A stretch of DNA of 64,000 nucleotides from Candidatus Omnitrophota bacterium (GCA_049643885.1 JBARQV010000020.1:10670-74669); one strand, 5' to 3'. Positions 6,911 to 64,000 are shown, counted from the first letter of the stretch. The notes: generated from the letters alone by a model not told the origin. Program-made: numbers and translations.

Positions 6911-6970
6911 TGGAGGGAGGTGTTAGGGTTTAAAAAATTTAGCTTTTTCTCAGGTCTAGTTTTCACCTTG

Positions 6971-7011: not shown

Positions 7012-7052
7012 TACAACAAGCGAGTGGTAAAAGGAGGGATTATTTTTTTGGC

Positions 7053-7094
7053 ATGTTAATAAATACATTTAATAAGTACAGGCAAAGGTGCTAA
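7053..7094 (+). other. Candidate 13-codon leader uORF (MLINTFNKYRQRC*). Its TAA (7092-7094) ends 1 nt before the giant-gene ATG at 7096
   Basis: The only canonical SD in the intergenic region (AAGGAGG, 7032-7037) sits 15 nt upstream of this ATG, not of the giant gene ATG. The giant gene itself has only a weak AAAGGTG. Confidence 0.25.
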
Positions 7095-7095
7095 A

Positions 7096-13000: not shown

Positions 13001-16000
13001 CTATTGATGCTATTGAAAAAGGCCCTGCCGCTGAAGCCGCTCCCGCGGTAAGCGTCGCCGACCTCAAGGCAGAACTGGAAAAAGCAAAAAAAGAACTGGC
13101 CGCCGCCGAGAAAAAACTCACCGAGCAGCAAGGTAAAAAGTCCGAGAAGGAAGACGCAAGGAGCCAGGCCGCTGCTGCCGTGGCCGAGGCAGAAGCCAAG
13201 CTTGAAAAAGCCCTGGCGCAAGCGCCGGCGGAAGAAATGCCCGAGCAGGCCCGGGAGTTAAGGAAAAGGGCGGAAGGAGCGGAGGCTCAAGCGGGAAATT
13301 TACAGGAAAAGCTTAATGCCGCCATGGCAAGAGTCGAGAGAATGGCTCAGGCGAGAGCCGATCGAGCAGCGACTTATGAAGGCGCGCGTGAAGCCGCTCG
13401 CGAATCAGCGAGCAGGGACGCGAAACGCGAAGCAGAAAGAGAAAAACGCAAAGAAGCACGAGCGACAGCTGAAAAGCGTCTGGAAGAGAAAGAAGAAGCG
13501 GACAGGGAAGTTGAAAATCTTTCCGAAGAATTCAAAAATGCAAAGCAGAAACTTATCGAGGCGGAGTGGACAGAGATGGTGGCCGAGAAAAAAGCGGAAG
13601 ACACGGAATTTAAAGACGCATTGGAACAGGCCGCCGCCAGGGCGGAAAAGCCAAAAACGGATAAAGAAGTCAAAGTCGCCGAAGCCGTTAATGTCTTTGA
13701 TGAAATTGAATCCAGCCAGAAAGAGGCGGAACAAGCGCAGAGGGAAGAAAAAGACGCGCAGGAACGCTTAGATCAATGGAAAAACATTGCGTCAGACGTT
13801 AAGGCGCGGGTCGAGATATCGGAAGAACTTCAAAAGGATGAAGCTAAGCGGCTGGAAGCGGACAGCGCGCGTGAAAAAATGAAAGAAGCACAGGATAGAG
13901 TCGCAAGCCGCGAAGCTGGTATTAAATCGGTGGAAGATGCTGCCGATCTTATGGAAATCGACGTAAAGAAGCAGGCTGAGAAGGTCGCAGACGCGGACAT
14001 AAAAAGACTCCAGGGCGAACTTGCTTTTGCTGACGAAGAATTAGAAAATTCGGAAGAAGCACTTAAAAAAGTCAGGCAGCGTCTGCAATCCGAGGACGAA
14101 ATAGAAAAAGACGCAAAAGGAAGGCTGACCTCCGATGCTGCCGCAAAAGTGTTGCGTCTCGAGGATGCACTAGCCAGGAAAAAAGCAGAAATAAACAATA
14201 AAGTAGCTCTCGGTCTTGGTGAATGGGGCAAACTGGGATTGAATACCGGAGATCCTAAGTTAAATGCTGAAAGAAAGGCAGCGAAAGCGAAAGCCGAAGC
14301 CGCACGAGATGCCCTGGAGGAGGCGTTGGAGAAGGCACTTGGCAAGGCGAGAGAAGAGGTGAAAAAAGAATACAGAAAGGAAATCGAAACGCTTACCGAA
14401 GAAATAGGATCCAGAAAGGAAGAAAAGATTTCACTGGCAGCCGATATAAAAGGACTGCAGGAAGGAAAAAAAGACGGGAGTATTGCTGAAAAAGCGCTTG
14501 ATAAGCGCGACAAAGATGACCCAGACGGGCGGACTTTTAGGGAACAGATAGAAATGCAAAGAAGACAGGCGGAGTTAGATAGGAAGGACCTGGAAGCGGA
14601 GAAAAATAAACTCGAGGAAGCGGAAGAAGCATATTATAAAGTAGTCGATGGAATTGAGGTTGAGGTCGATGAGGAAATAGGCAGGCTCAGCATAAGACAG
14701 GCGAATGAAAAATTGGCGGAAGCGGAAGAATCGGCGCGCCTCGCAAGGGAAAAAAGAGAAGGGCTTGATAAGCATTTACAGGAAGTTACCGAAAAGGCGG
14801 CAGCAGCGGCTGTGGCAGCCGGTCTTCAAATTGTCGGCGGAAGATTGGTGTCTCAGGAACTTATAAAGGTAAGAAGGCAATATGAAATAGCGCAGAAAAT
14901 AAAGGCAAGGCGAGAAGGAAGAGTCTCGGAACTTGAAAAGAAACTCGCGGAAGCCGAAAAAGCGTCCCGCGAAGCTGAAGCGGAAATTGCCAAAGCAGAA
15001 GAAGCCGCTCCTGAAGAAAGAGCCCCTCCTGAAGCCAAAGAAGCAGAAGCCCCTCCTGAAGCCAAAGAAGAAGCCCCTCCTGAAGTCAAAGAAGAAGCCC
15101 CTGCCCCTGAAGACGCTACTGCCCGTGCCCGTGCCAGGATAGATAAAATACTGGCTGAAAGCACCAGGGCGGAAGCCATAAGCCTTCTTATCGTTCTTTC
15201 GAGAAGCGATGACGCTATCGAGGCGAAGCTCGCCCGGGAAGCCCTCGGCAATCTTCTTGAAGGCAAAGACAAGCTATCGGGCGATGTCAATAACCTTTTG
15301 ACTACGAGTGAAGGCAGGGAGGAGCTGCTGGTAATATACAACCGCCTTCGCGGTCAAACCCTTGACCCTGAAATATCAGCGGAAGAGCTTGCAAAGGTAC
15401 AGGAGTCCATAAAAATAATCGAAGCGATCCTTTGGTCCGCTTTACTGAAAACCGCAGATCCTGCTGTCACCGAAGGCGCGATTGATGTAAGCCGCCGTCA
15501 TATAGAAGCGGTGAGCGCATTACTCCAATCAAGAATAAAAAGGTTAGGAGCTGAACTTGATGATCTTCTCGCAATGGGAGATCAAAAGAATCCGATAGAC
15601 CTTCTCAGGCAGATAAGTGAGGCCAGGAGGATTGAAAAAGAGCTCAAGGCATGTGAAACCGCCATTAAGGATATAAACGATCGCAGGATCAGTCTCATGT
15701 CGGATACCCAGGTCCAGCTCAGAGATGAAGACGGGAAATTCATATTAGAGGATGTGTATAAAAAGATCGATGAGCGTGAGATCGAACTGAAACTCGCAAA
15801 AGACAAACTGACACGACTCAAGTCCAGGAACAGCTATTTTCTAATGACCATCAAATGGGGCTCGAAAGAGACAAAGAAAACGCTTGAGGATAAGAAACCG
15901 CTGGAGGCCGAAGGCCCGGACGGGAGGACATATTATGTCAATGCCTCGACAGGCCAGGCGGATAGATACAGCCAGGAAATAGTAGATGAGGCGTCCAAGC

Positions 16001-19000
16001 TTCGCGACGAAGTTTTGGGCATGAGAGAGATCGCCAAAGCCGTTGTAAAAAAGATGGCCTGGTGGAGGTGGGGCTCATTGGTAGCCTTGGTAACCGGAAA
16101 GAAAGCAAAGATCCGGAATGAGCTGAAGGACAGGCTGCAGGAATGGGCGCTACTATTGATGGAACTGCTTCCGAAAGAACAAGCGGATAGATTCAAGGAT
16201 GAACTGAAAATAATAGGCGAATACAACGAAAAAGAAAAGACGTTCACGATTCATGAAGGTTTCGATTTCAAAAATGCCGTCGATATTATAGATTATCTGG
16301 CCAAGGTATCTATGGTAACCGTCGGCATGAAGACCGAAGAGAGAACGGAAGAAGGAGTGACGAGAAAATTCTATTCATTCGATGATACGGCCGTTTCGCT
16401 GGGAACCGTGGACAAGGTATCGAAAGAAGTCGGTTCAGTCATGCATAAACTTAACCAGATACTGAATCCCGAACCAGTTTCCGATGAAGTCGATAAAGTC
16501 AGCGATGAACAAAAGAAGAAGGCTCAAGAAAAGGCCACTAAAGGGTTCAGCGACCTTCTTGTCAGGATCGACGAGGCATTTGGCGGCAGGCTCGATGCTG
16601 CCAAAAAGCAGAACCTTGTGGATGCAAAGAAGCTTATCGGTGAAATACTTGAAGAGGTAGAGAAGAAAGTAAGCCGCTCGGGCGTAATAATGACAAAGAC
16701 CCTCCAGCTCATCAAACTTTTAGATAATGTTGTTTACGGAAATTCCATTGGCAAAATAAAGGAATTTCTTGAGGTGCAGCTCGGAGTCGACAAGATCATC
16801 GAAGAGAAGGACATCGATGACATTATGAGAGGGCTCGGCGTAGATGATAAGGCGGAAATAGACCAGTGCGTAAAACACGTCCTTGAAAAAGTGGACAACA
16901 CAAAGAGAAGAGAAAGGCTTGCCGAATACATTGTAAAGTTCATGCTCACCGGACATATTAAACCGGAAAAGATGGAGTTTTTTAACGTGAGCCCGGCAGA
17001 ACGTCAAGGTCTTATAGACGAAATAAGTGTAGGCATCGAGTTGAGTGAAATGATCCGCGAGAGAAAGGAGGAGATCGCTGAAGAGCTGAAAAAGAGGAAA
17101 CAGCGTTTTTCCGACCCGAATAACAAGGATAACGAGCTTGTATACGAGTTCGTTGCCCTGTACCAGATGTCCGCTCTGCTTATGAAGGGCGAGTCGCCTT
17201 TCATCGAGCAGGTCCTGACGGGTCTTTTCATGGCCGACAGCTTTTTTGTGGATATGGCTACCGGAGCGGGGAAAACGCTTTCTTTTCCTCTGGCGAACAT
17301 GCTGACCAGGTGCAATTCGGACGGCGGGAAGCATCCCGAGGGGCTCAAGAGCATGCATCTCGTCACGCACGGTTATTATACCGAGAGGGATTTCAGGGAA
17401 ACACATTTCATTTACAAGATGATGGGATATAAAGTCGCGTATCTTACTGACGAAGACAGGGAACTTGAAGCGGCGCACAAGTCCCTGGGCGATAACGATG
17501 TCGTTATAACTTCCTATTCAGCCCTTAGTTTCCTGTGCCTGGAAGCGGGCAAGATGGACAATCCCAAGAGCAAAGACTGGTTCGAGCTCCTGCAAAAGAC
17601 AAGGCTTACCTTTGACGAATGCGATGTCGCGCCGAGACTTGCCGATTTCATAACCGCGGCGATGCAGAACAAGTTGAGTTTGAAAGAATACATGAAGTTA
17701 CACGTGCTTTTCAAGACCGCCGAAAAACTGCATGAAAAAGGAGGAATAAGCGCCATATACTCCCTGTTCGAAGATAATATCGTGGGCGTCCTGGATAAGC
17801 AGGACAGGGCAAATCTTGATAAGCTTCGGAAGATGCTGGGGTTTGAAGAAGAGCCGGACCAGGTGGAGATAAACGATAAAGGGAACATCGTAATAGAAGG
17901 TAAGGAATATACGAAAAAACAGCTCAAAAAAGCCAAACAAATAGCCGTGCAGGGCTCCAAGTTTCTTGTTAAGCATTCGGATCAAAAGGGTTTTGTTTTC
18001 ACCAGGATGGAATACACCGCCCCGGTGGATCTCGACCCGCGAAAGGTTAAAAAGCGCATGGAGGATACCGGTAAGACCGAAGAGGAAGTAGAGGAAGAGC
18101 TCCGGAAAGAAGCCCTCGGTGCCAGCGGGGCGAAGATCGACCTTGTCTCGAGGAGCGCGTACGGGAACGAAAGCACCAAAGATATGGTGGCCGGGATAAT
18201 GCGCAGTATCACGTTCGGCCTGACCAGTACCCTCGGTAAGGAAGTCATAGAGGATACACCGACATGGCAGGAGTTCCTGGATGTCGTCAAGGTCCTGTAT
18301 GTAGACGAGGAAAACGTCGATTACAGGCTCAAGTACCAGGAAAAGGACGAAGTGCCCGCTATTTCGGTAAGGGAAGTCGACGGTGAAGCGGTTGTGTTCA
18401 AAGGAGAACAGATCGTCGAACCCGCTTTTAACGTGGAACGCCGCGCGGACGGTTCGGTCCGTATCGGGGATGAGACGGCGTCATATGTCATCAGCGATCA
18501 GTTTTTCAAACAAAGAAAGACCGATGATGAAAGGGTCATCTTTCTCGGTGGTAAACGGTACAGGGTCTCAAAAGGCAAGAAAGGCGGATACGAGCTCCAG
18601 GAAGTCGCTATGGAGATAGTCCTTCTTGATGAACAGACAAAGAGGGAACAGGGAAAGCAGAGGAAGGATACGTTCCACACGCTTTATGAGATGAAACACC
18701 ACCTGAAGAGAGACAGGCCGGATACGCCGGAGATAAGGGGCGATAACAAGAGTTCTGACCAGTGGAATATCGCTAACGTTGTCGATAAGGCGCATTCACT
18801 CGGTGGCGCCAGCGGATCGGTCAAGGACGCGGCAAGGGTGATGCTTGGTTTCTTCGGGAAGAAATGTAAACCCAGGATAAAGAAACTGCCCCCGCCTATC
18901 GCCAAAAAGGGAGCGCATAGACAGGGCATTTTCGTGCCGAGTGACAAAAGATTGTGGCAGGTAACGCTTAACAGGATAAAGCAGATATACACGCTTTCCC

Positions 19001-22000
19001 CAGGGGCGAGCATGATCATATACTTTGACGATATTGGCCAGGCGAAGGAGTTCGAGAAGGAACTGAATAAGATAGTGGACAACGAGGAATTCGAAAAATT
19101 GGCGGGTGGGAAAGTGAATGTGAACGTGTTCGACGACGAAGGACAGAAGGAAATAGACCTTGTCGAGCAGGCGGGAAAACGGAACACGATAACTTTAGCC
19201 GATTCAAAGCTCGGCCGTGCGACCAACGTGCGGCTTGCGGAAATTGTGGGTTTTAATCCTGCCAATTCCTCAAAAGCCCTAAGGGAATATTTAATGAGGA
19301 CACTTATAGATGAACCTGTCAGCAGGGGGGAAGTGCTGAGTGATGAAGAGAAACAAAAAACCCTGAAGACAATCGATCATTACGTCAAAGAATTCGTAGG
19401 CGTCCTGGCAGGTGTGTACCAAGAAGACGGGAAAGATAACGTAGGACTTTTTTATGAAACGGATGTCGCTTCGAGGGAAGTGAAGAGGCGCAAGGTGGAA
19501 GATTTCCTCAGGAAGATCGGCGTGGGTGAAGAAAGCGAGGTCTGGGATATAGTAAGAAGAAAATACATCGACGGACTATTTCTCATAGACCTTTCGCCGG
19601 ACGGCAACCTGCAGGCGAAAGAACAGAAGTTCGGCAGGAACATGAGGGCGGGCGATACAGGTTATGTCGATCCCATATATTCCCTACAGGAAGAGTCGAA
19701 GTTCTACACGATGGTCATGAAGCTGTACGATAAAGATTATAACCAGCAGTGGGGCCCCATACGCAGGTGGTGGAACGGAAGAATATTCACCGAATTCCAG
19801 AGAAATGTCGAAAGGCTGAAAGCGCTTGAGGAGAAAATGTACGATGAAAACGGTCATCGCAGGGCCGATGTGACCGAAAACGATCTGAATGAATGGGTTG
19901 AACTGCAGAGATATTTTTCGGATCTTCTGCTCAAGGTAAGGGTGGAGTGGCAGAGAAGGGCCGATAACGCGGCTATACGGGAAGTGAATAATAAGAGAAA
20001 GATGAGAGAAGAGCTTGAAAAGGTGAGTTTAATGCTCCCGGAGTTTTATAAAGCGGTTGAAGTTGATCCGACAGTAGCCGATGATCTAGTGATAAAAAGA
20101 CTGGAAAGGTTATTCGACAAGTATTTTGACCTGGAGCGCATGGATAAAGAAAGCGGAGTGATCGACCTTAAGGACTTGATCGGCACTATCGAACAAGAGT
20201 TCAAGCTGCGTCTCAAATTGTCGGAAAAGAGGAACCAGATCACTTTAAATCCGACAAACGATCAAGAAGCCAGGGACGAGCTCCGCTGGCGGCGGGACAT
20301 GTATATGGCGATATTTTTAAAGGCGATCGGCTCACTGGGGAGCGTAAGGATGAGCCCGAGAGAAGAGACAGTGCTTCAGGCGGGAAGGGACGCTTTCCAT
20401 CTTGAGATCGACGAAAAAGGTGTGTTAAGCCTCAAGTCACTGGTGCGAAATCAGCCTGACGGGTCAAAGGCTGAATTCAAAGCGGAAGAGCTGCCCGATG
20501 GTTCAGTGATCATCGCGGGGAAGGAATACGATGTGGTCCGTGAACCGGGCAGTGTTAAGTTGGTCGATCCGGAAACAGAACAGATCCAGTGGGAATTCAA
20601 CATAAAAGCTGGCATAAACGCGGCGGGCAGGCGGTTCTTCGCGGTGACTCTGGCGGGAGCGTATTTGGAAGCCATCAAGGAAGTATATAAGAACGGATTT
20701 GAGGCGCTTAAGTCGAAGATCATCCGCGAATTCCGGACTTACGGAAAAATAGTCAAGGTAGACACTTCAGAGAACGGCCTGGCCGATAGCGCGGAGGAAC
20801 AGGCGCTTGAAAGTTATAAGGACAGAGTCGCCGGCACTGCGACTTATGATACCGAGGCGTCTTTGGCGGTGATCGATGAGGCAGCTGAAGATATTGATAA
20901 AGGACTGGAGGAAGTTGGCGATAGACTGGCAAAGGAAAGGCAAAAGGATGAGGACCAGGGAGATAAGAGGTTGGAGAACGAACGCGGATGGGTTCCCCTT
21001 AAGCAGGAGGCCTCATCCAGAAAAGCGGCGAAAAAGGTCGAAAGAAAGGTAAGGGCGCCCCATGAACATGAAATGGGCCTGGAGATCCCCGCGCAGATCG
21101 TGGCTTCCAGGGAAAGAAATACTGATGAGGATTGGCATACCAGTGAGGTGGACCTTGATGAGGAATTTGAAGAAATGGAAGTAGAAGGAGAAAGGCCTTC
21201 CGTGGCTGCCGATGACGTGTCTGTTGCTGTGGTTGAAAAAGACCTCGCAAGAAAGGCCGGTAAGGATGATACTGCGAGGAAAGACAGGGAGAAGGAGAGC
21301 GTTGCCGCTCACAGGAGAAGGATCGTAGATGAAGGCGTGATCGATGTAAAGCATGCCGAGGGAGCGGTTGTCGCCACGAATAAAGGTGAAGTAAGACCCG
21401 TAAGCGAAGCCGAGGTGATACAGGGCGCGGACATTATAGCAGGGACGACTCCCGCCAAACCGCCTGAGCAGGTCCTGTCTGAAGGGGGAGTCGTTGTTTT
21501 TACAAGTGAAATGGCGTGGAATGAGCTTGGTGAAGCCGGACAAAAAGAGCTTATAGGAGAACTCCGTGAAAGGTTTCCCGGCATGTATGTGACATTCGAA
21601 GGCTGCGCGCCGAGAGGCGGCGCGCTCGGCACAGAAGAAGGAAGAGTTAATATTACAGGCCTGCGTGTATTCCATCCTTCCGCCGTGAAGGCGCTGGAGA
21701 AGGAAAAGGCGTCATTTGAGGATGAAGCTTTCAAGAAGGCGAAAGCGGGTGCCGAAAGAAGAGGCGAGGCGTTTACAGCGGACGAAGGTGGTGACGTGGT
21801 ATCACAGGAAAAGCTTGAAGGCGCTTTAGGCATTTCACCCAAAAAGGGTGAAAAAATATCCATCAGGAGGGTAGGAGATTCGTTTTTTCTTGTCGCCGAC
21901 ACGAAAGACGGTATTGTGGTGAGAAGTCTGGGTGGAGATGTCTATGGCCAGACAAGGCTTGCCATTGTCCGCGCGAACGAAAAGCTTTCAGCTAAGGACG

Positions 22001-25000
22001 AGGAAAGCGGGAAGAAAGGCATACAGGAGGGAGAATACGTCCTCGATAAAGACGGTATTTACAGTAGATCCACGGGCGTTCCCGGAGAATATGTGGTTAA
22101 ATTCGATAATATAATCACGGACAACGTTCCTGAAAAAGAGGTTATAGAGAGATTGCCTATGCCGCTGAAAGAAGCGCCCGGACCCGCGATATTAACGGGC
22201 GGTGTAATAGGCATCCCGCGATATTTAGGTACCAGTATCTTATCGCTCCTGAGAGGACTCAGGGACAGTATCGGTGATGCATGGGACTGGTTAATAGAAC
22301 GGCATCAATTGGTGCAGTCAAGATTCGTGACGTCCTGGAGAAATGTCTCGGGTATCGGGAGCGGACTTATTTTTGGTCTTTGGCTGTTAAGAAGAGCTCT
22401 TGGCATTCCCATGGACATCCTCAAATTCATATTTCATGATACAAAAAGACGTTTCGCTGTCCTGGGAGAGTGGATAAACGCGCGGTATAACAGAGCGATG
22501 TCCGAGATGGAACAGAGATGGAAAAGGGAAGACCCGAAGTACCAGCTCAGGGTTTACAGGCTTGAAGCGGTCGCAAAAGACAAGGACGCATCGTGGGCGT
22601 CAAAAGCCCTGGCGAATGTCAGATTATGGTGGCTTGGAAGGAGACTGGGGAGATGGAAGGGCACAGGATGGCATATTGCCCTGCGCGCGTATCAGGGCGC
22701 GCTGTTGGCCGCCAGAGCCGCCCAGGGGGTGTTATGGTTAGGGAAGAAAGCGGTACAACTTGTAACTTACGGGTGGTTTTACTGGCCCTGGTCAGCTTTG
22801 GATAAACGGCTCAAGGCCAGGCGGGCAAGAAGGGAAGTTGAACCAAAACCCGAAGAGGTCGTAAATATCCGGTTGCCTGATACTCTTCGCACGCCCGGGA
22901 AGCCTTCCGAAAAGGCCGAAGAAATAACAGATCTGGCCGAGAGTCTCACGGGCGAGAGGCTTTCCGGGGTTGAAAAGACAGGTCTCTTGGACAAGTTGCG
23001 GGAATACCTGGAGGCGGAAGGAGAGTACAGGTACGCATTAGGTTTCGGCGATGTCGGCGGGATAGCAAATATACTCGCCGATATGTACTTTTACGAAGTA
23101 AACAAAAAACCGGAGCATAAAGATTCTGCCGCCCGGTTGGGCCGCACGCTCTTTGGATTACACGAAAAAGAGGCGAAGGCCGCAAAAGAAGATGAAAAGA
23201 ATGAAATCCAGAAAAAGAAAGCCGAAAGGGCAAGGATACTCGCACAGAATTATATCGCCCTTGCGTCCGCATTAGACAAAAAAGACATTGACGTGAAAAC
23301 ACTCAGGGCGGTCACGCTGTACGCGGCCGGAGATAAGGAAGGCGCGAAAAAGATACTTGATAAGATAAAACTGGGTAATATACCCGACAGGGACGTCAGG
23401 AGGATGGCTTACGCTACTATGGCAAAGATGCTGGAGGATGAGAAGGATTATAATAGGGCCGCCGGTATGATCCAAAAAGCGAAGGGTTTGACGGAAGAAG
23501 ACAAAGTGACCGTGGCCGGTGAGGAGATAGAATTATCGGTGAAAAAACAGGGCGAACTTAAGAAACAGGCTTCGGAGAAAAAAGAAGAAAAAGTAAGCTT
23601 GCTTAATAGGGTAAAGAGGTTACTCTTCCCTGAAGCGGGGGCGTCTAAAAAACAAAAGGCAATAGGATTCGGGATATTTGTTGGGCTTTTCCTGCTCGCG
23701 ATATTGGCCCCGCAATTCCTGCCTCTTGTTTATTTGGGTTTTACGGCGCCTCCCGTTGTAACGGGCATTTGGAGCCTTGTTGCTATATCAGCACCGGTCT
23801 TTTATAACAAATTGCTTGTACAGTTAGCCATGTGGGTATTCAAGTACGCTGCAAGTCGGGTCAGGAACTGGACGACTAATAATTTTACACTGGGAAGGAT
23901 GTTGGCCCGCGAGATATCCGCCCAGAAGCGGGCGCCGGAGAAGGCAGAGCCGAGGATAAAACTTGTGAAAGCCTACGAGGAAGCGGGCGAGCAGAAAAAA
24001 GCGGAAAAACTTATCAAGAAAACCATGCGGATGATAAGAAAGGACCGCATGAGTCCGGAAGAAGCGGCGAAGTTTATAGAATATTTATTGGAGAAAGGCA
24101 AGGTTGACGAAGCGAAAGAACTTTTCATCCGCATTTATCCTCGCGTACCGGTCGATAAGGTTCCCGTGCCCTTACTGATACTCAGGGCGAAGATGGCCCT
24201 GAGAGATGAGCCGCTGGACCCGGTGAAAATGGCCGGTGAGCCGGAAGACCCGATCGAGATAGCCGCCGCAAGCGCCGACGGGGTCTTAAGCAGGGAACCT
24301 GAAAATGCCGAAGCGCTTTTATTGAAGGGCGAAGCCCTGGCCAAGAGATTTGAGAAGGAAGAGAAAAAAGATAAAAAGACGCCGGGCGAGTTCAATGATA
24401 TCCTCGCGAAATTGACAGAGCTTACAGAACGGGGGCTCCTGACTCCTGAACAGGAAAGGAGGGCCAGCGAGATGGAGATAGCCAAAGCCGTTAAGCCCGA
24501 AGATAGCGACAGGGCGGTCTGGAAAAAGGCCAAGGAGACAAAGGTCGGTGAGGCGGTCCCTGAAAAACCCAAGATGGCCGAAGAGCCTGCCAAGCCCGAA
24601 ACTCATAAGCCCGCGATGGAAGACCTGGAAAAGCTTAAAAAGGAGAAAAAGCTGAGCCCGTCAGATCGCCTTGCCCTTGCGGTGCTTTACATGGAAAACA
24701 AAGACTGGCGGAAAGCCCTTAATCTGCTACGGGCAATGCCGCAGGACGCGCCCGAGAAAGCCGAGGCTTTAAAGAGGATGGCCATGTGTTGCTACAGGAT
24801 GCTTGAGGATCCCAAATGGTGGTACCTCACATTGATAACGAGATTGAGGATGACGTCCGCGATAAACGGTCTGAGGAGTATCAAAGGGCAGGAAGAATGG
24901 GCCGACTGGATCGAAAGCACCATCAAAGGTTTTGACATTAGTAAGGCAAAGGCCGCGAGCGAGAAGATATCATATACTCCCAAACCCGAGGACAAAGAGC

Positions 25001-28000
25001 TGACCGGTGAACAAGGTTTAAATAACGAACTATTCACACTCGGCGTCGAAAGGGCCATCGCTTCAAAGAAGGACGAGATCGATACCGTCAATTGGGTGGG
25101 TGGCATTTTGAGCGAAGCGCAAATACCCGAAGCAGAAAAAGGGAAAATGCGGGCAAATCTGGACAAAAAGAAGAGCGCGGCTGCATCAAAGGAGTTACTC
25201 CGGGATATCCAGAAAGAGAAGAAAGCTAAATACGTGATGGTAAGTGATCTGCGAAAGCTAAGGAACAGAAAACGCAGGGCATTATCGGCGGATGAGAAAA
25301 TGTCTTTGGGTAGACAGATCGAAGAAACAGAAAAAGATATCAGTGACAAGCGCGCGAGGATATTGAAGATGTACACAGAACTCATCAATCAAAACGCGGG
25401 AAGGCCTGAGGTCATAGAGCAAGTAAGGAGGGAAATGGCCTCGGAGATCGGTGAGATAGCCGGTATGATGAAAAAAGAGGAAGATTTCACCCCGGAGAGA
25501 TTTACAAGCATCATTTTAAGCTTGGATGACAGGGTTTTGGTGGAAGATCTTTCGGAAGGAGGCAGGGATGCCTACGCTCTATTTTTAGAAAACTGGACAG
25601 AGTATATGGGGCAAAAACTGGGCATGTCCTATGAAAAAGACAAAGTGCCTGCAGAGCTTGAAGTAGGCAAAATGGACGTTTTCACGCAGCAAGTGACTAT
25701 GCTTCTTTTGATGTATCCCGGCGCAGATGAAAACCTTAAGCGGCAGATAGAAAAAATATTGAAAGAGATCTCCGGATTCAAGCTTTTCGGAAATTGGGAT
25801 AAAGAGGAAAAGGAATACACCCGGAAACCGATTTTTGACGTCATAGCCAGTATGATCCGTAGAAAAGATATCCCATCACTCCGCTTCCTTTGGGCGGGAC
25901 TCCAGATCGCGGAAGCCGGGAAAATAAGCAAAGATGATCTTAAAGAAAATCTCAAAGATAGGGCTGACGCGGCGCTACTTTTAAACGCGCCTTTAACCTC
26001 TTTAAAAAGCAAGGTTGTAGATCCCAAACAAGATGTAAGAGAAAAAGCGTTCAATCTGCTGTTATCTATAGTTAATTTCTGGTTCGGAGACGGCGCTGAT
26101 CGTGCGGTAGATGAATTGCTTGCTGAAATCATATCGAAAGAGACGCTTACCCCGGACGATATTAGCAGGATCCAGCGTGTGCTTGCTCAGGTAAGACTCA
26201 TGCCTGTTATGTATGATAATCAGAGGCAGTTTATCGAATATCTGGTGGGGTTAAAAGAGGTGCCTTTGAACAAGAAATTGGAAGCCATCGATAAGTGCGG
26301 TCTTTCGCCCAGGGAGAAGCTTGAGGTCCTGATCTCCTTAATGGAAAAAGAAAAGTTCACGGGAGACGACCTTTATATCGCCCTTGATAACCTGAAAAAA
26401 CGGACCGGCGAGGTCGAGCCGCAGGACCTGAAGGATCTTGAGAACAGTTTAACCAGGCTTCTAGAGGCTCTGCCCCCCGACAGGGATGCTCTTGTCAAGG
26501 GGATAGAAGTGATCAATGTTATTTCATCCAAAGCGACTAAGGAAATACCCATTGCCCACAAGGGTGTTTTTGAGACGTTAAGGCCCAGATTGGAAAAAGT
26601 TATGCTGGAAGAGATGAAGAAAAGCGAGAAGGCCGAGGTCGGACTTATGCTGGAAGAGATCGAACGCCAGGAAGCGATCGCGGCAAGGTTGGGGGAAATG
26701 GGTGAATACGGGCAAGCCCAGAAAATACTGGAAAAGGCGATCGAGCGTTTGAATGATGTGCTTAAAAAGAATATGGAATTAGCGCGAAAAGGAGAAGAGT
26801 TATATGCCAAAGACCAGGTCCTCAGGTTAGTAGACAAGGTTAATGTTCTTACCGGGAAGGTGACAGAGTTTTACAGAAGACAGGGTAAACATTACGAGGC
26901 GGAAATACTTGTTGTCAGGGGATACAGGCTCCTGGCCGAGTACGGGATAATCGTGGAAGGCCTGGCGGATGTTTCGGAATATACCCAGAAGGCCGAGGAA
27001 GCCCTGGTGAACGCGAACATGCTCAATCCCTACCAGCCGGAAGTCGCGCTGGAGATGATGAGGATAAAAGCTTTGAGTCTCAGGGTAGCGAGACGGGAGT
27101 TAGAAGAATCCGAAAAGTCTGTTAAAGAAGACGAAGAAAAAAAGGAAGAAATGGATTCTCAAATAGCGGCTTTGGATGAAGAGATAAACAAGGCAAAAAG
27201 TGATCTAGACCGCAAAAGAAGGATAAGAGATGCCGAGTTTGCCCTGAGGGAAGCCCAGGCGATAGCCGGTGACGAGCGCGCGGAGCAAAACATCCGCAGG
27301 CAGGAACTGGAAAAGGAAATGGAGCCTATAAAGGTCCCTGAAGATAAGAAAAGAGCCCTGGAGCGGGACAGGGCGGATGTTGAAGCCAGGCTGGACAAAG
27401 CGCGCAAGAAGAGAGACGCCTTAAAGAGTAGGGAAGTACACATACTTACTTATGAAAACGCGCCGATCGAAGAGGGGGCAGAATGGGCTTTTACGGTCTT
27501 GTCGAGGAGCGGGTATGACCGCGAAAAAGCGGAAGTAAAAGAAGCCATAGGATTTCTTGCTTCCCTGCCCGCCGGTTATGACGGCAGGATATTGAGCGGT
27601 ATAGGCCTTATGAGGACAAGGGCGGGCGCTTTGAGTGGGAAAGACAGGCATCAACGGGACGCTTTTATAGATAACCTTATTCTTGATATTTATTTCAGGG
27701 GAGATAAAACGAAGATGCTCGAGGCGATAGATAGTATAGTAAAAGCCGCCGAAGAAGGGAAAACCGAGATAAACATATTCGGCGGGGATTTCAATGTGAA
27801 CTTTGTCCTGGGATATATAGTGAATAAAATGAACCAGGTCATTAAAGAAGCTCCTGAAGAAGAAAAACAGAAACTGCAGAATGAACTTATCATCAAGCTG
27901 ATAGACGCGCTGAAGAGGATCCGGAGGCTTGATATGCCTTTCCTTGAAGCGGATCTATTCTCCAAAGTTTATACACAGCTGGAAGCCGAAAAAGACGAGG

Positions 28001-31000
28001 ATCTCAAAAAAGCCGACCAGTGGGATATGATGCTCAGGAGTCTTCAATTATTACTCCAGAAAAAAGGCCTGCCGGGAGACATCCGGACAGATAACGACCT
28101 GATGGAACTTATAATTGCCATGTTCGACAAATTAAGAAAGGATAAAAAGGAATGGGACAAGTTAGGCGAGCGCGACAAGACGGTGCTTGTAATGGATTTT
28201 AATATTGAAAGAGAGAGCGCGCCTGGCGAGATCGAATCTATTGTAGAAGAGAGAAAAGACACGGCAAGGCTTCCCATGTACCGAAGATTGGCTTCCTCCG
28301 GCGATATCGAGGAGAGGAAAGCGGGCATTATGGCTCTGGCTGAAATGGAAATGAAGAAAAGGGACCCGGATTATGATCTTGTAAGGGACCTGGCGGAAGA
28401 ACTTGCGGAACTTGATTCCAAAGAAACCAAAGCGAAGTGGTATCTTGCCTTTGCTTATTTCAGGGGCGGGAATAGGTTAACATCCGACGGTAAAGAAGTC
28501 GCAGGTTATTCAAGGGAAAAAGCCAAAAAGCTTATGGACGAATATCTAAAGACCCCGGAACCGGCGGAGGAAGCCCGCAGGCTCATGGGTGACATATACA
28601 AGGTGGAACAAAACGACAGGTTCGGGACTAATGTCAACTCCGAAGGGAATAATCCGGAAGCCTATAAATATTATATGGGCGCCGTGGAGCACCTGGTTAA
28701 GAGGTACAGGGAAGAGAGAGCCAAGGGGAACGATAAAAAGGCCAGCATGTACCTTATCGAAGCGATAGGCAACCTGGACATGGCCGTCACGACAAACCCG
28801 AGGAGCGGCGCCGTACGGGTGAAAAGATCCAGATTGCTCATGGATATGGGCGAGAACGATCTTGCCAGTATGGACATAGAGACCGTTACGCGTATCAGGG
28901 ATCTTAAGCCGGAAGAGAGACTTTTCGGGCTTATAGTTACAGAAGAAGACTTTAAGGAGGCGGACTTGATACAAGCGGACCTTGAGGGAAATAATGAAAA
29001 AGCGATAGATATATTGAAACCTAAGGGATGGTTTGCTTTCTTAAGGCGCGTTCCGGCGCGGGTAGCGGCAAGATTATCAGAAAGGTATGGCCGGCTTGGG
29101 GAAAAGAAATTGGCCGATAAATATAGAAAACTTGCGCTTAAAGCGGTCGAGAAACGTAAAGAAGAGATCGATACCGATATCTTGGATACTATGGCCGCAA
29201 GAAGGGAAGCTGAAGGGACTTATGAAAGCTTGACCGAAGCGATATCCTTGCGTGAGATGAGAAAAGGCCGGCCCGGCGTGAATGATGAAACCGAGAATAA
29301 GCGTATCGCCGGGCTTAAGATCAAGCTTGCGCGTGTTGAAGGTCCTATTTCCTTCTGGAAGAGAATAAGGTCCGCGGCCAGGCAGAAGGCGGCCCAGGAA
29401 GGCCGTGATGAAAGAAGGAAATTACTGAAGGAGGCGAGAGAAGCAGATGCCGAAAGGGCCGCGGAAATTGACGTTGCTTTTATGAATATCAATTACGAAG
29501 AGCTGGACCACCTGGAAGATCTTCAGGAGCAGTACGAAAACTACGCGAAAAAAGCCCGCTTCATGAAATTTATAAGCCGCAAACGCGAAGATGTAATGGA
29601 CAAGATATTGGAGCTGCGGGCCGATAACACGGAGCTGGTTTACGCGAAATTCGAAAGGAATGAAGTCCCCATCGGGGATGTAGAGGTCTTTCTGGAAAAC
29701 CTGGAAGAATATGCGCTTATTAAAGGGAGAAGCGTACCTGACAAATACAAAAAGGTGAGGGCTAATGCATTGGTCCAGAGGGGCAACCTGGCTTTTAAAG
29801 CAGGAAGGTATGCCGAGGCCCGTGATCTGTATAACGAGGCTATAGCGGAGGATCCCGCGAACTCAAAAGCGCATTTCGGGAAATATCAGGTCAGCAAGAC
29901 GTTGAGCGACAATTGGACTAACCTTACCTTTACAGAGCAGGCGGCAGAAGCCCTTAAACAGGCGCTTAAGCTCGATCCTTCTTTGGACGGCGCCGAATTG
30001 CAATATTCAGGGGAACTTATCGGGATCTACCTGGATCAGCTTGGAGATGCCGCTTCCGCGGATGAAGTAAGGCAAGCGATGTTAGCACGCGCTTTAAAGG
30101 AAGAGGTCGAACCGTCCAAAACGGTGATAAGCAGGGAGAAAGACAAGGCAAGCGCGCTTGATGCGATGGTGCGGGAGCAGATGGAATATGACGAACTGAA
30201 TAAGAGAATAAAGGAAAAAGAAAAAGAACTCGAAGCGATCACGAAAGGAGACAAAGATAAAAAAGGAGAGAGACCGGATTATGTCCGCCTGGAAGAAAGC
30301 ATCAAGATAGACAAAACGGTCAGAGACAAAAAAGAGGCTTCCCTGGAATCGAACAGAGGTGCTTTTGAAAGGCTTGCCGGGGATATGAAGATGTTCAACC
30401 AGGTGATAGGTAACGCTCGGGGCATGCCGGCGGATGAGGGAATAGCGTACCTGGAAGCGTTTTATTATCTCCTCGGTATCAATCGTTTACTTGAAGACAG
30501 AAACATCCGCGACCGGATCGATCTTGCCCTGGCGGAAGCGTATAACAAGAAAGGTGGTTTCGGTGAAGCGCGCGAAAAGGTCGATCTTCTTATAAACACA
30601 ACCGATATCCAAAGTATTATCTCAAGCATAGTATCAGATGATATTCCCGTTCCGGAAGGGTCACATCTCAAATTGGTCATCGAAGCCCTCATTCTCAGGG
30701 CCGGACTTTCACTTAAAACAGATAAACCGGAGAGATTCATGAGTGCTGTGTCGGACATGAACTCGGCTGTGCAGATCATCGCAATATATAATTTGATCTA
30801 TGGTACAAAATTGAGTGTCGGTGAAGCGTATGCGAGGTTCAACGATATACTCACGGAAGCCCGGAAAGCCGATGTGTCCATAGCCGATAATACGGATATG
30901 AAGCGTAATATATTCGGTATATTTATGGCCCTTGCCCGTCTCGGTGATGACGGAAATGCCGCGAGTAACGTAATGCAGGTGGCTTTATCGAGACCCGGCG

Positions 31001-34000
31001 ACAGGGATTCAGGTTCTTTTATAGTGGCTATGCTCGATGACAAGGGTGTCAGTGATATGATGAAGGAAAATATGATAAAGGGGCTTATCGACGACACAGT
31101 GAAGGAAGAGGAAAAGAAGGCATGGGTCAGGTCGATAGAAAGGATGCAGGATGTCCTTGGGTCCCTTAAAGAGTCGTATAACAAAGGTGTGAAAGCTGCG
31201 GCTATGATGGTCCTCGGTCTTATCGAGACGAGCAGAAGAAGGGCGAGACAGTTATTTAAAAAGGCTACCGCGCTGCAGGAAGAACTAAAGGAAGTTATTA
31301 GAAGGGGCAGGACGGCTGAATTTTACAGAAAGAGGGCGGAAAAAGCCTTCAGGGAGAGAAAATATAAAAGAGCCATAGCTAATTATGAAAAGGCCGTTTC
31401 GATGGACCCCGCGCTTAAGAAGGACGCCGTTCTTATGTTAGATCTGACCCGCTCATACCAAGGGGAAGCCGGGCGGTATAAAAGAGCGAGGAACAGGAGG
31501 AGAAATTTACCGAAACAGATGGAGATGCTGCAGAAGGCCCTGGAGACAGCACCTGATAACGAAAAGGCCGGGATAAGATCCGAGCTTATAGCGTCTTTAA
31601 GGGAATCCGCCGGGATCCGGATGAACAGGTACCGCTCAGCAAGGCCGTCCAGGAAACGCAGGGCCTTTCCGGCCCTAAGAAAGCAGATCTCGGAGCTGAA
31701 TTATCAAATAGGCAGCCTGCACCGTGAGAACGGTGAGACCAAAGAAGCTGAAGACGCTTTCCGGTTGGCCTCTAAATATGATCCGCAGAACGCTAAGGCG
31801 AGGACCGCGCTCGCGGAAATGGTAAAAGAAAAGGAGGAAAAGGCAGAAGCGGGAATGACGGGTGTGGAACTTCTGGTAAAGTCCATGCAAAAGAGAAGAG
31901 AAGGAGATCACAAAAAAGCGATAGCGCTTCTTGAGGAAGCCGTTAAGAGGGATAAAGAACTCGAAGACACGGTCAAACCCGATAAAGAAGCGATAGATTC
32001 CGTTGACAGGGGCATAGACCGCATACTCGATCATGAGATATTCAAGAAGTTAACAGGGGAGATGGCAAAAGCTGAAGTGGAGGGGAAAGATGACAAGTAT
32101 AAAGAAAAATTGCTCGACAAGTGGATGAATGAGCTTTCGGATGCATCAAAAAAGAGGGTAAGCGCGCGCAGGGCGATACTGGACAGGCATTTCATGGATA
32201 AAGAAGGCGACAGGTCGGATGAGGAAAAGAGGAAGAGATTTTTTGATATAGGGATGGACTTATTCAGAGAAGTCGGGGAGACCGAACCCAGTGTGCCGGC
32301 CGACAGGGATTCTTTCTTTAACCGGGCGCTGGTGGTAGCGCAAGAACTGTTAGAGCAAGGCAAGTTACGCAAGGCATATTATCTCGCCGATTTTGTCATG
32401 CGAAGGGATCCTGACGCAAAGAGAAGAGGAAGGGCCGCATTTCTTAAGGCGAGTTCATATATTAAGAGTGGCGATGATAAGGAAGGAAAAAACCTTGAAG
32501 AAGCGGAAAAATACTACGATGAAATAACAGATAAAAAGATGAGATCAGAGATCGCCCTGGGGATAGCCAATATGTATGCGGGGCGGAGCGGTGACCCCGA
32601 TCTTTTAAAAGCAGAACAAGCGGTGTTGAGAGGAGATGCTATCAATTATTACAGGCGGGCTATTGAAGACGATCCTTCGAACATAGCGGCGCTGGACGCG
32701 TTCATGGCTTTTTATGGAAGGGACAAAGCAGATGAAATATTCGCGGATAAAAATCTCGAACGCCTTAAAAATGCCCTGAAAACGGCGGTGGATATGGCGT
32801 TTTTGAGTTCTGTTGCCAGGGCCGCACTAAGCGGAGCGCCGAGTCCTGAAAAACTTGGCACACTCCGGGACATCTTAGACCGTATAAGGGCGTTACTGAC
32901 AGAGCCGGATATCGAGGAAAGGCCGTCCGATGCGGCAATTATAGATTTCCTGCGTAGCCTGACAAATTTACTGAAAGACACAAAGGCGAGGGTTTCCGAT
33001 AAAGAAGGAATTGCGGAAGTTGACAAAATAATCGATGCTATGAGTGATATCAGAAGCAGCATCGAGAAAGATGATGTTTACCGTGAGAACACCGGAATAA
33101 ATAACGTATTCACATTGTTGAACGCCCACTTGTATATGTACTCTGGCCGCGATGGGTCTGCGGAGATCGAAAAGGTCACTGTACAAACCGATGACGACAG
33201 GGCTGAAGTGATCTTTGCCCGTCTCAGGGGGATGCTAGCGCCCGATAAGCCGGATATTCAGGGAGCCGAGCTGGCGCTGAAGAGGTTGACTAAAGCAGAT
33301 CCTGAGGCAACACCCCGCGCCAGGCGCCAGATCGCGGAAGCGCTGTTCATTGTCGCAACAAAAACAAAAGATATATCCGATACCGATAAAGCGGAATATC
33401 TTGAAAGAGCCCTCCAGCTTTGGCCTGAATTTAAAGACGCCCACAGGGAATTTGCCGGTCTTTTTGCTAAGACAGGCAACACGGAAAGAGAAGCATATCA
33501 CCGTGGCCAGGTAAAAGCTATTGGAGACAGGATAATTATGCCACTCGCGATAGAGCCGAGCGGAATAGGGAAGGAACTGTTAAAGCATGGCGTAAAGGCA
33601 CCTTTGCTAGAAAGGTCTCTTTACTTTGCCGTACCGCTGCTTGCTGTATTTTTGGCCGGCGGTATTGCGACATGGGGTCTCGGTGCTTTCGGTTTCTTTC
33701 TGCTTCCGCTCGGCCCTGTCTTTAATACGGGATTTGCCCTGGGCGCCGCCGTATTCATTCCTAGTTTTGTTAAGGCGCATAAAGAAGGAAAACCGGCAGC
33801 CATGGCTGTTTCAATTACCAGTGTAGCGTTGCCTCTTCTCTTTAGTCTGTCACCGCTTGTGTATATTGCTCTTGCGATAGCGGCGCACTCCGCGGTCAAT
33901 CTCATCATTTTCGGCATCAACCGTTACGCGGGTGAGAAAGTATTAAGCTATGCCTCGGCGGAAAGGATAATCAGCCGCGAAACCGGTTTTCCGCAGGAAA

Positions 34001-35428: not shown

Positions 35429-35466
35429 GCGGGGAGGGCCGTGTAAGCCCTCCCCGTTTTTTTTAT
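35429..35466 (+). terminator. Rho-independent terminator of giant gene 2: gcggggagggc-cgtgtaa-gccctccccg then T9
   Basis: 11-bp GC-rich perfect stem, 7-nt loop and a 9-nt T-run, 62 nt after the TAA. A second 7-bp hairpin (gtcagct...agctgac) lies just upstream. Confidence 0.75.
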
Positions 35467-35544: not shown

Positions 35545-35970
35545 GCTAGGAATTAGAAGATAGAAATTAGTTGGGTCTGAAGCGCACTATAAGGGCCGTT
35601 AGCATCTTAGATAGGGCAAGAAATTGGGCATACAGATTTTCGAACTCGCTTTTACTGATCACGTTGGCTCTGTATAGAACAGTGATTATAGGGATACACT
35701 CGGAAACAGAGCCTTGAGATACTACGAAAGACTGCTTCTTTTCCCGGTTGCTTCTACGACCACTTCCCTCGGCTATATTGCAGGAAATGGACAAAGTCGC
35801 CCGTACAAGGTTATTCCCTATAGATCTTTGTAAATTGTAGGACATCTTGCTGAATATTGGGTATATTGATGAAGCGACATCTAAAGATACCTGGTACACG
35901 GTTAATCCCTCAAAGGCAAATTTCTTCATTGGGCGTCCTCCATACTAATTTCTATCTTCTAATTTCTAGC
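35545..35970. mobile_element. Compact 426-bp cassette bounded by 26-bp inverted repeats (25/26 match) that encodes only a four-helix-bundle protein. IVS-like or miniature insertion element
   Basis: Left arm gctaggaattagaagatagaaattag (35545-35570). Right arm ctaatttctatcttctaatttctagc (35945-35970) is its reverse complement with 1 mismatch. The arms overlap the stop codon and lie 16 bp upstream of the ATG of the enclosed minus-strand gene. Confidence 0.5.
35567..35929 (-). CDS. Four-helix-bundle protein of the TIGR02436 / 23S rRNA intervening-sequence protein family, 120 aa
   Basis: Signature NIAEGSGRRS...QGSVSECIPIITVL...LYAQFLALSKMLTALI matches the family pattern NIAEGxGR...GSxxE. Clean ORF between the inverted repeats. 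Confidence 0.8.
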   Translation of the reverse strand: MKKFAFEGLTVYQVSLDVASSIYPIFSKMSYNLQRSIGNNLVRATLSISCNIAEGSGRRSNREKKQSFVVSQGSVSECIPIITVLYRANVISKSEFENLYAQFLALSKMLTALIVRFRPN

Positions 35971-36068: not shown

Positions 36069-36098
36069 TTGACAAACACTGGTGGGGTGTGGTATGAT
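36069..36098 (+). promoter_or_regulatory. Near-consensus sigma70-type promoter P1: TTGACA, 18-nt spacer, extended -10 TGgTATGAT
   Basis: ttgaca 36069-36074; tg 36090-36091; tatgat 36093-36098. An AT-rich direct repeat (tagttataa x2) sits immediately upstream like an UP element. Confidence 0.5.
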
Positions 36099-36245: not shown

Positions 36246-36274
36246 TTGACTTGGGTATGAAAATGTGGTATCAT
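36246..36274 (+). promoter_or_regulatory. Second promoter P2: TTGACT, 17-nt spacer, extended -10 TGgTATCAT. It shares the tgtggtat core with P1
   Basis: ttgact 36246-36251; tg 36266-36267; tatcat 36269-36274. About 160 bp upstream of the gene 3 ATG. Confidence 0.45.
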
Positions 36275-36434
36275 TATATAGTAATTAGACGATAAAAAAG
36301 GCAGTTAGGGTTATTTATCGTCGGGAAAAACGACTTGGCAAAGAAGACTTGGCAGCAGCTTGGTAAATGACTTGGCAGACTTGGCGAAAAAGACTTGGCG
36401 AACAAAAACTTGGCAAAGAGGCTTGGCGAAAAAT

Positions 36435-64000
<27,566 letters not shown>

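Follow-up and report, generated by a model that had tools for sequence, protein, structure and literature searches.

Hydrophobic modules deep inside a giant Omnitrophota protein: possible membrane staples and a CPBP-like four-helix module

We analysed a 64,000-nt stretch of DNA from a Candidatus Omnitrophota bacterium (GCA_049643885.1, JBARQV010000020.1:10670-74669), referred to as the window, in which all positions are counted from the first letter. It consists of three tandem, very long open reading frames (ORFs), all on the + strand (Table 1). The second of these, gene 2, encodes a giant protein of 9,423 amino acids (aa) that contains two robust hydrophobic modules far from its N-terminus: a central helical hairpin and a four-helix module close to the C-terminus. 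We read both as membrane staples with cytoplasmic entry and exit, belonging to a largely cytoplasmic, membrane-tethered giant scaffold, and put the probability of this reading at about one half. The four-helix module is conserved among relatives of gene 2, and its invariant residues resemble the signature of the CPBP/Abi/Rce1 proteases.

Two robust hydrophobic modules in gene 2

Transmembrane (TM) segments were assigned from hydropathy scales, uncharged-run statistics, conservation and AlphaFold2 models. The scales used were those of Kyte and Doolittle (KD) and of Hessa, along with the Eisenberg hydrophobicity (<H>) and hydrophobic moment. Counting single 19-aa windows with KD >= 1.6 against composition shuffles gave 5 observed and 5.0 expected for gene 2, 6 and 7.3 for gene 3, and 0 and 5.1 for gene 1. 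Uncharged runs gave a different picture. Gene 2 contains runs of 43, 50 and 52 aa, while the longest run in any of 300 composition shuffles of this gene was 35 aa and the mean longest run was 19.7 aa. Thus, the clusters are significant, and isolated helices are inseparable from composition chance on hydropathy alone. An earlier reading of the window (the original prediction) had placed multi-pass TM clusters deep inside the giant proteins; this holds for the gene 2 modules at 23.65 and 33.6 kb, and fails for the segments at 22.3 kb in gene 2 and 56.33 kb in gene 3.

The central hairpin is an unbroken uncharged stretch with a mean KD of 1.64, in which the best 19-aa window reaches 2.37 and the second helix 1.55. 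Lys and Arg (K+R) number five on its N-terminal side, zero in the turn and two to three on its C-terminal side. The original prediction of two to three helices at 23.65-23.86 kb is borne out by the 50-aa run with its two strong helices, the third segment being weak. This third segment aligns with part of a stronger third hydrophobic segment in the relative P0041, a protein of 7,055 aa that is complete on a 21.5-kb contig and collinear with gene 2 except for a coiled-coil insert of ~2,400 aa. The position of the hairpin is kept in P0041 and its sequence has diverged, identity being low except for a few Pro and Ala residues, as expected of a plain anchor.

The four-helix module contains the two other long runs, aa 8841-8892 (52 aa, nt 33616-33771) and aa 8900-8942 (43 aa, nt 33793-33921). 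Mean KD over the robust runs of both modules is about 1.65, and the hydrophobic character of both is retained in relatives at about 25-40% identity. AlphaFold2, run from the module alignment, returned a four-helix bundle with a predicted local distance difference test score (pLDDT) of 89 and a predicted template modelling score (pTM) of 0.81, the helices spanning module positions 2-29, 38-59 (plus a short one at 62-67), 73-89 and 94-119. This agrees with the about four helices expected at 33.62-33.92 kb. They had been regarded as generic membrane passes, a description that does not fit a conserved domain with invariant polar residues: in an alignment of 14 module sequences the mean column identity was 39%, and eight columns were invariant (P8836, E8839, P8847, F8891, H8895, A8902, H8931 and N8935). 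Mean K+R across the 14 modules was 1.43 in the N-terminal flank, 0.14 in the loop between helices 1 and 2, 2.57 between helices 2 and 3, 0.00 between helices 3 and 4, and 1.57 in the C-terminal flank. From the basic residues at both flanks and in the helix 2-3 loop we infer a membrane-inserted module with both termini in the cytoplasm, which would bring the Glu and the first His to the interface with the cytoplasm.

The relatives were obtained with an exhaustive search using gene 2 aa 8780-9423, which returned 37 proteins, every match ending at the extreme C-terminus. Word-indexed searches with aa 5001-5735 and aa 8780-9423 returned nothing, the query itself included. Some of the C-terminal homologues are full-length (4,340 to 7,715 aa) and share the N-terminal head domain of gene 2. 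A hydrophobic cluster lies 490-600 aa from the C-terminus in about 14 of the 37, and 813 aa from it in P0040. No related loci were found in genome contigs with the gene 2/P0041 alignment or with a single C-terminal module, nor in metagenome contigs with gene 3 aa 7801-9188 or a four-sequence module alignment. Gene 2 itself is represented in public protein sets by fragments only, P0001 (N-terminal, 976 aa; its source name denotes a protein of a Candidatus Omnitrophota metagenome-assembled genome) and P0019 (C-terminal), each 100% identical.

Downstream of the module lies the C-terminal domain shared by all 37 homologues. Its AlphaFold2 model has alternating strands and helices, with pLDDT of 76-96 per 10-residue block over most of the domain, and the modelled fold is Rossmann-like alpha/beta. 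Conserved stretches include AIVIDAR, NFVI-G and RINRLIP. A Foldseek search of the whole C-terminal region against the PDB gave nothing meaningful (TM-scores about 0.15, the top entry being a cannabinoid-receptor (GPCR) crystal structure). Within the family the domain is accompanied by the CPBP-like module, by an upstream two-helix hairpin that lacks the motifs (P0036), or by no hydrophobic segment in its vicinity. About 10 residues past the last module helix, most relatives have a conserved motif of N, S, G or P followed by Y-A-T. The corresponding sequence in gene 2 is SYASA (aa 8950-8954, 33943-33957), with Y-A-S in place of Y-A-T. The motif could be a cleavage or recognition site.

Resemblance of the four-helix module to CPBP proteases

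CPBP proteins are glutamic intramembrane proteases (PMC11980579), and in the Abi/CPBP core motifs 1, 2, 3 and 4 lie in TM helices 1 to 4 (PMC3578759). Six of the eight invariant residues of the gene 2 module reproduce the CPBP/Abi/Rce1 signature (PxxE, FxxxH, HxxxN), each in the right helix: helix 1 carries PxxE, helix 2 has FxxxH at its end, helix 3 has small residues and helix 4 carries HxxxN. The four-helix core is present in the AlphaFold2 model. All 14 sequences have both residues of motif 2 (F8891 and H8895) and both of motif 4, HxxxN/D (H8931 and N8935). As in members of the family (PF02517; MmRce1, the myxosortase MrtX), a Pro-x-x-Glu stands at the start of helix 1. The signature residues are the only invariant polar residues of the module family, and the predicted active site is at the cytoplasmic leaflet.

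A composite pattern (P..E, F...H and H...N/D, with loose spacing) was searched across 106,000 residues. It matched once in each of 15 module-bearing proteins and nowhere else, against a shuffle expectation of 0.2, and it also matched all six plasmid CPBP proteins checked. As a consensus-like CPBP probe gave no match in the PDB, 14 real CPBP sequences were taken from plasmid and phage records as a comparison set. Aligned to these with hhalign, the module had all three motifs in register over 90 columns (score 19.4, P = 0.0086), its first Glu aligning with the first Glu of the CPBPs. None of 120 column shuffles reached this score, and the reversed alignment scored 10.7. The NCBIfam model CPBP_JDVT_MrtJ weakly matched one module member (E = 0.073); the Pfam, NCBIfam and PDB profile searches otherwise gave no CPBP match.

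Several results count against a CPBP assignment. Motif 1 (EExxxR) is present only as PxxE, the next residue being R, Q or S and the Arg position Y or F, so that neither the second Glu nor the Arg is present. Glu and FxxxH are 52 residues apart, compared with about 29 in CPBPs, and ~23 residues are inserted between motifs 1 and 2. None of the 14 module members matched Pfam PF02517 at E <= 10, and a PDB profile search with the module was also negative. Foldseek against the PDB gave a best E of 3.7 with no Rce1 entry listed, small helical bundles being a weak case for this method, and against the PDB and BFVD nothing better than E = 0.9. Shuffles that preserve blocks of eight columns reached the hhalign score in 18 of 150 cases, and the probability reported by HH-suite itself was 4.7%. 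CPBPs are also free-standing proteins of ~200-300 aa, unlike the gene 2 module, which is embedded near the end of a giant. Given the missing Pfam, PDB and Foldseek matches and the weak profile-profile support, the CPBP likeness is a resemblance and membership is not established. On balance, we lean towards the module being a real, very divergent CPBP relative with a CPBP-like catalytic core.

Sidedness of the chain

The N-terminal hydrophobic segment of gene 2, taken for a TM anchor in the original prediction, looks like a cleavable Sec signal peptide rather than an anchor of ~20 residues. Read directly from the sequences, it has the basic n-region, the h-region of 7-15 residues, the polar c-region and the small residues at -3/-1 that define Sec signal peptides. 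K+R number five before the segment and one after it. In gene 2, gene 3 and ~17 relatives the basic n-region leads into an h-region of 12 residues, which is followed by a conserved polar pair (QQ, QE or EQ) and then by a tetrad whose last residue is small and precedes Gln. The small residue at -1 and the Gln at +1 recur as VFG/Q, TWA/Q and VFA/Q.

The head domain that follows is shared with gene 3, to which gene 2 is paralogous over the N-terminal ~530 aa only (35% identity), the remainder of the two proteins being unrelated. A head profile matched 18 proteins, and those source names that bear an organism are all Candidatus Omnitrophota/Omnitrophica or Ca. Omnitrophus magneticus. Pfam and PDB searches with the head gave no match. 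Residues near-invariant in genes 2 and 3 and in the 18 Omnitrophota proteins comprise D104, H106, Q112, E134, G135 and T499-G-G-F-H503, and they look like a metal-dependent hydrolase-type signature. The DxH, VEGSEG and GGFHT motifs resemble the TraB/GumN/Tiki superfamily; nothing supported such a relationship and we do not claim it.

The coiled-coil insert of ~2,400 aa (gene 2 aa about 650-3076) comes next and is entirely absent from the collinear P0041. Within it, in-frame tandem DNA repeats with periods of 33/105/138 and 27 at 11742-12203 encode AEAKAEADR(K/R)AAE-type repeats, and more tandem repeats are found at 14989-15102. The SecA-like region then contains an NTPase (aa 3335-3510) that matches nucleotide-binding domain 1 (NBD1) of SecA in the PDB (phmmer, E = 2e-5, confined to NBD1, query residues 35-161). 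This region has a weak Pfam DEAD match and is 36.5% identical to that of P0041, in which PF07517 SecA_DEAD is found. Walker A and DExD are kept in the three diverged relatives gene 2, P0041 and P0036. No SecA-like domain was found in the part of gene 3 contained in the window. The soluble modules named in the original prediction are thus present, namely the SecA-like NTPase, TPR motifs at gene 2 aa about 5844-8232 and HEAT repeats at gene 3 aa about 8163-8770.

We propose that in both gene 2 modules the chain enters the membrane from the cytoplasm and exits to the same side, which would pin the polypeptide to the inner membrane face. If both start and end in the cytoplasm, the chain upstream of aa 5522 would be cytoplasmic, as would the TPR region that they enclose and the C-terminal domain. 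No hydrophobic segment was found between gene 2 aa 55 and aa 5522, so that the cytoplasmic upstream part would include the SecA-like NTPase; conservation of its Walker A and DExD motifs fits a cytoplasmic, ATP-using domain. The stapled cytoplasmic stretch would then begin with the SecA-like ATPase, take in the TPR region and close with the C-terminal alpha/beta domain. The modules would not thread successive soluble domains to alternate sides, as the original prediction of soluble segments alternating between passes would have it: both have basic outer flanks and are read as in-in insertions with an even number of helices. The central two-helix hairpin, variable in sequence and conserved in position, would serve as a plain anchor. 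In the four-helix domain, helix 1 would begin at the cytoplasmic face with the Glu, helix 2 would end there with FxxxH, and helix 4 contains HxxxN; this domain may be a built-in juxtamembrane protease or a catalytic relative of one, acting on the giant protein itself or on a partner in the inner leaflet.

Some features of the family speak against such a cytoplasmic scaffold. By the usual rules, the lack of a stop-transfer segment puts head and ATPase on the same side, and the signal peptide says outside where the ATPase says inside. This contradiction, as read from the sequences, holds across the family, no stop-transfer candidate being present in the first 2,800-3,300 residues of six full-length relatives. 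The parity of the central cluster is unsettled because P0041 has three hydrophobic segments there, compared with two strong and one weak in gene 2. Clusters in six relatives that we read include single helices and triplets, and a rule that clusters are always even-numbered was dropped for this reason. An Ala-rich stretch in gene 2 (aa 2568-2586) was considered as the missing stop-transfer helix and rejected: its KD is 1.44 with one Arg, the Hessa scale does not flag it, and the whole coiled-coil insert is missing from P0041. The original prediction that the sidedness of the soluble segments is not obvious is upheld, with the paradox, one that earlier publications had noticed, moved to the N-terminus, where a signal peptide and an ATPase have no pass between them.

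The remaining hydrophobic segments are weaker. In the 22.3-kb array of gene 2, the best 19-aa window has a KD of 1.42 with three charges, <H> is at most 0.52 and hydrophobic moments are 0.52-0.64; the homologous stretch of P0041 contains Asp and Lys. The array is amphipathic and rich in Trp and Arg and is probably interfacial or buried, not TM as first proposed. The helix at 56.33 kb in gene 3 had been credited with a textbook positive-inside flank. It has 16-17 hydrophobic residues, a maximum KD of 1.27, and basic residues on both flanks (K+R 4 on the N-terminal side and 8 on the C-terminal side). That such segments might be amphipathic helices and not TM spans had been allowed for, and this is what we find for the 22.3-kb array and the sub-threshold 56.33-kb helix, the weakest of the calls.

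As predicted, gene 3 has TM-like segments at 48.4, 60.6 and 63.55-63.68 kb (KD 2.1-2.5), which are plausible as TM spans; as single helices they fall within composition chance. At aa 3974-4013 the uncharged run is 40 aa compared with a shuffle maximum of 36, and the flanks are asymmetric (K+R 3 before and 0 after), which makes it the sole asymmetric one of four internal sites. Gene 3 also has a 192-bp duplication at 47622-48017. The 22-23-aa uncharged runs elsewhere in gene 3 equal the shuffle mean of 22. KD is 2.21 at aa 8063-8084, and K+R number 4 and 5 in the flanks of aa 8050-8084 and again in those of the hairpin at aa 9039-9082, whose turn is RYE. Three of the four sites (aa 6627-6643, 8050-8084 and 9039-9082) are thus basic on both flanks, and the HEAT array lies between two of these. 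The charge pattern suggests hairpin, re-entrant or monotopic insertions with both flanks on the same side. A further hydrophobic helix (aa 8389-8408, nt 61599-61658, KD 1.72 window) falls within the HEAT array, where it is probably buried as part of a repeat and not TM.

The observations at the N-terminus could instead mean that the chain is woven through the membrane, the signal peptide exporting the first ~5,470 aa (head, coiled coil, SecA-like domain and amphipathic array), a three-span central cluster returning the chain to the cytoplasm and the four-helix module keeping the C-terminal 3,850 aa inside. The signal-peptide-like N-terminus with its -3/-1 pattern conserved family-wide, the lack of a stop-transfer segment in any full-length relative, and the third central segment, strong in P0041 and weak in gene 2, are all in keeping with this. 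DeepTMHMM surveys likewise put many such proteins in a signal-peptide-plus-TM class, and earlier work predicted most of their domains to be extracellular. The price is that an NTPase whose Walker A and DExD motifs are conserved would sit outside the cytoplasm, where ATP is lacking. Moreover, the most basic flank of the central cluster is the N-terminal one (K+R 5), which would break the positive-inside rule, and the third helix required in gene 2 has only 15 residues with two Lys and <H> of about 0.1-0.5. Weaving is the main rival to the staple reading, and we regard it as unlikely. Far less probable still is the view that the segments are buried or amphipathic helices of soluble helical-repeat domains, with no internal membrane passes at all. 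The chance-level count of KD >= 1.6 windows is what it would predict, it describes the 22.3-kb array, the 61.6-kb window in the HEAT array and the sub-threshold 56.33-kb helix well, and TM calls on these proteins have been warned to be unreliable (bioRxiv 10.1101/2023.11.21.568195). It does not explain uncharged runs of 43-52 residues with a mean KD of about 1.65, never seen in shuffles, nor the hydrophobicity that both robust modules keep in diverged relatives, nor loop charges distributed as in a membrane protein; gene 1, which looks soluble, has zero windows where 5 are expected. Burial is likely true for the weak segments only.

A different kind of explanation is that the giants are polyproteins with internal sorting signals, helix plus basic cluster (gene 3 aa 6627-6655 and 8063-8094), cut by the built-in CPBP-like domain. 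The module is present in cis, and there are several helix-plus-K/R-cluster elements. CPBP proteases cut tags composed of signature motif, TM helix and Arg-rich tail before surface display that depends on type II secretion (T2SS) (PMC11980579), and giant Omnitrophota genes have been reported beside T2SS loci, with cleavage into smaller polypeptides proposed (bioRxiv 10.1101/2023.11.21.568195). The elements found here have no conserved signature motif ahead of the helices and are also basic on the N-terminal flank, unlike classical sorting tags; protease activity and cleavage are predictions only, and no T2SS gene lies within the window. We consider this explanation improbable. Combined with the stapled scaffold that we favour, it would give a membrane-stapled, self-processing polyprotein, in which a divergent CPBP-type glutamic protease cuts its own chain or the neighbouring giant at the helix-plus-basic elements. 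Such a combination is a long shot. If true, it would account for signal peptide, ATPase and cytoplasm-facing staples in one reading frame and would be an in-cis, internal version of myxosortase-type sorting, with signal-peptide-exported N-terminal modules released for surface display or delivery to prey.

Other features of the window and relation to known giants

Table 1. Features of the 64,000-nt window and of the proteins encoded in it (a slash marks the boundary between positions -1 and +1)
Feature	Position (nt)	Position (aa)	Strand	Remarks
Gene 1	2-6910		+	Partial, cut by window edge, 2,302 aa
Gene 2	7096..35367		+	ORF of a 9,423-aa giant protein
Signal-peptide-like segment of gene 2	7198..7257	35-54	+	Basic n-region, 12-residue h-region TISCVIILTFLF, polar QQ, then VFG/Q
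Conserved head domain of gene 2	7258..9045	about 55-650	+	Paralogous to gene 3 head (36633-38255)
SecA-like motor region	16324..20958	3077-4621	+	Walker A GAGKT aa 3390-3394, DECD aa 3507-3510
Trp/Arg-rich amphipathic helix array	22183..22803	5030-5236	+	The 22.3-kb cluster
Central helical hairpin	23659..23808	5522-5571	+	50 uncharged residues, two helices
Possible weak third helix	23812..23856	5573-5587	+	LLVQLAMWVFKYAAS; 15 residues, two Lys, <H> 0.10-0.50
TPR-containing helical-repeat region	24625..31791		+	Between both membrane modules; Pfam ANAPC3 and TPR at aa 5844-5902, 7556-7595, 8200-8232
Conserved four-helix membrane module (putative)	33574..33960	8827-8955	+	About 480 residues before C-terminus
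C-terminal alpha/beta domain	34063..35364	about 8990-9423	+	~430 aa; 37 homologues, always extreme C-terminus
Terminator-like hairpin	35430..35465		+	GC-rich 11-bp stem-loop then T8, ~60 nt past gene 2 stop
Gene 3	36435..63998		+	Open frame from probable ATG at 36435, at least 9,188 aa, continues beyond window
Gene 3 signal-peptide-like segment	36567..36632	45-66	+	Ends TWA/Q
Gene 3 Gly/Ala/Ser/Thr-rich hydrophobic segment	48354..48473	3974-4013	+	Single, KD 2.09
Gene 3 short hydrophobic helix and basic cluster	56313..56399	6627-6655	+	YSPYIFAILAAIAWWL-KKHLKPKRRLRR; sub-threshold as TM span
Gene 3 hydrophobic segment	60582..60686	8050-8084	+	13 + 22 residues, one Glu between
Gene 3 HEAT/Arm repeat array	60924..62744	about 8163-8770	+	Pfam HEAT_2 E = 1.3e-36
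Gene 3 helical hairpin	63549..63680	9039-9056 and 9060-9082	+	KD 1.72 and 2.51

Gene 1 differs in character from genes 2 and 3. Its product looks soluble, with 19% charged residues and much Ala, Ser, Thr, Gln and Gly, its GC content (0.52-0.57) is above that of genes 2 and 3, and the partial protein has no Pfam match. The terminator-like hairpin downstream of gene 2 suggests that genes 2 and 3 are separate transcription units. Between them, alone and antisense (35567-35929, - strand), lies an ORF of 120 aa that belongs to the 23S rRNA intervening-sequence proteins (PF05635, E = 5e-21); this small ORF and the giant genes are the only contents of the window. Directly upstream of the probable gene 3 ATG and overlapping it, the octamer ACTTGGCR occurs seven times within 116 bp (36333-36448); two promoter-like sites (36069-36098 and 36246-36274) lie upstream of these copies. 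Counted over the whole window, the octamer is present 10 times where 3.15 are expected, a number reached in none of 100 shuffles. The seven copies could act as a regulatory array or be a 5' leader feature.

The contigs of two relatives show neighbours other than T2SS or carbohydrate-import genes. On the contig of P0036 (L017 1-9651), the giant gene stands directly downstream of a Bat-like operon (MoxR AAA+, DUF58, VWA, BatD and TPR). On the contig of P0051 (L018 1-9886), the giant gene and a second gene, of 7,655 aa, stand in tandem on either side of an RHH-PIN toxin-antitoxin pair.

Omnitrophota giants with a signal peptide, many TM helices, SecA_DEAD and TPR/HEAT domains have already been described (bioRxiv 10.1101/2023.11.21.568195; 10.64898/2026.06.07.730766), and one of these two preprints includes a DeepTMHMM survey of 916 proteins. 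The implausible sidedness of some domains has also been remarked upon (West-Roberts et al. 2023, bioRxiv 10.1101/2023.11.21.568195). The occurrence of TM helices far from the ends of such giants is hence already known, and genes 2 and 3 add members, having an Omnitrophota host, very long ORFs with distributed TM helices and, in gene 2, a divergent SecA DEAD-like domain. They resemble the 'Archaeovorin-type' giants of West-Roberts et al. 2023 in their tandem ORFs of thousands of codons, Omnitrophota origin, TPR/HEAT repeats, TM helices along the chain and, in gene 2, a divergent SecA NBD for which scaffold and wing domains are not evident. Their length of about 9,400 aa is well under that of the >30,000-aa proteins highlighted there; the glycosyltransferase, hydrolase, NUDIX, C39 and S8 domains of that type were not detected in genes 2 and 3, and the window lacks the T2SS genes of 'Archaeovorin-type' loci. 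The N-terminal signal peptide and scattered TM helices are also those of the 'SP+TM' class (Nielsen & Lui 2026, bioRxiv 10.64898/2026.06.07.730766), a topology acknowledged there as prediction only. Gene 2 has about 6-7 helices in 9,423 aa, about 1.4% of residues compared with about 2% in the 'SP+TM' catalogue. With the SecA preprotein translocase, gene 2 shares NBD1 similarity and the Walker A and DExD motifs; unlike in SecA, NBD1 alone is detected by sequence, and the domain lies thousands of residues inside a protein that bears a signal peptide.

Neither the head nor the C-terminal alpha/beta domain nor the CPBP-like module is described in bioRxiv 10.1101/2023.11.21.568195; the CPBP-like module is mentioned in neither preprint, and cluster parity, conservation and motifs are not analysed in bioRxiv 10.64898/2026.06.07.730766. 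New here are the separation of robust from weak calls, the in-in reading of the modules, the reading of the 'anchor' as a signal peptide, and the conserved CPBP-like module with its C-terminal domain. Should the CPBP likeness be motif convergence only, what remains is a further case of an architecture already described.

Giant Omnitrophota proteins are among the largest known, and published surveys count their TM helices yet admit that the resulting topologies are unreliable. Taken together, our results indicate that these 'TM helices' are unequal and comprise conserved domains, interchangeable anchors and probable noise. In-in staples predict a scaffold that is tethered to the membrane and mainly cytoplasmic, and not one that crosses it repeatedly; the protease-like signature offers a specific handle, in the form of four point mutations, on whether the giants are processed.

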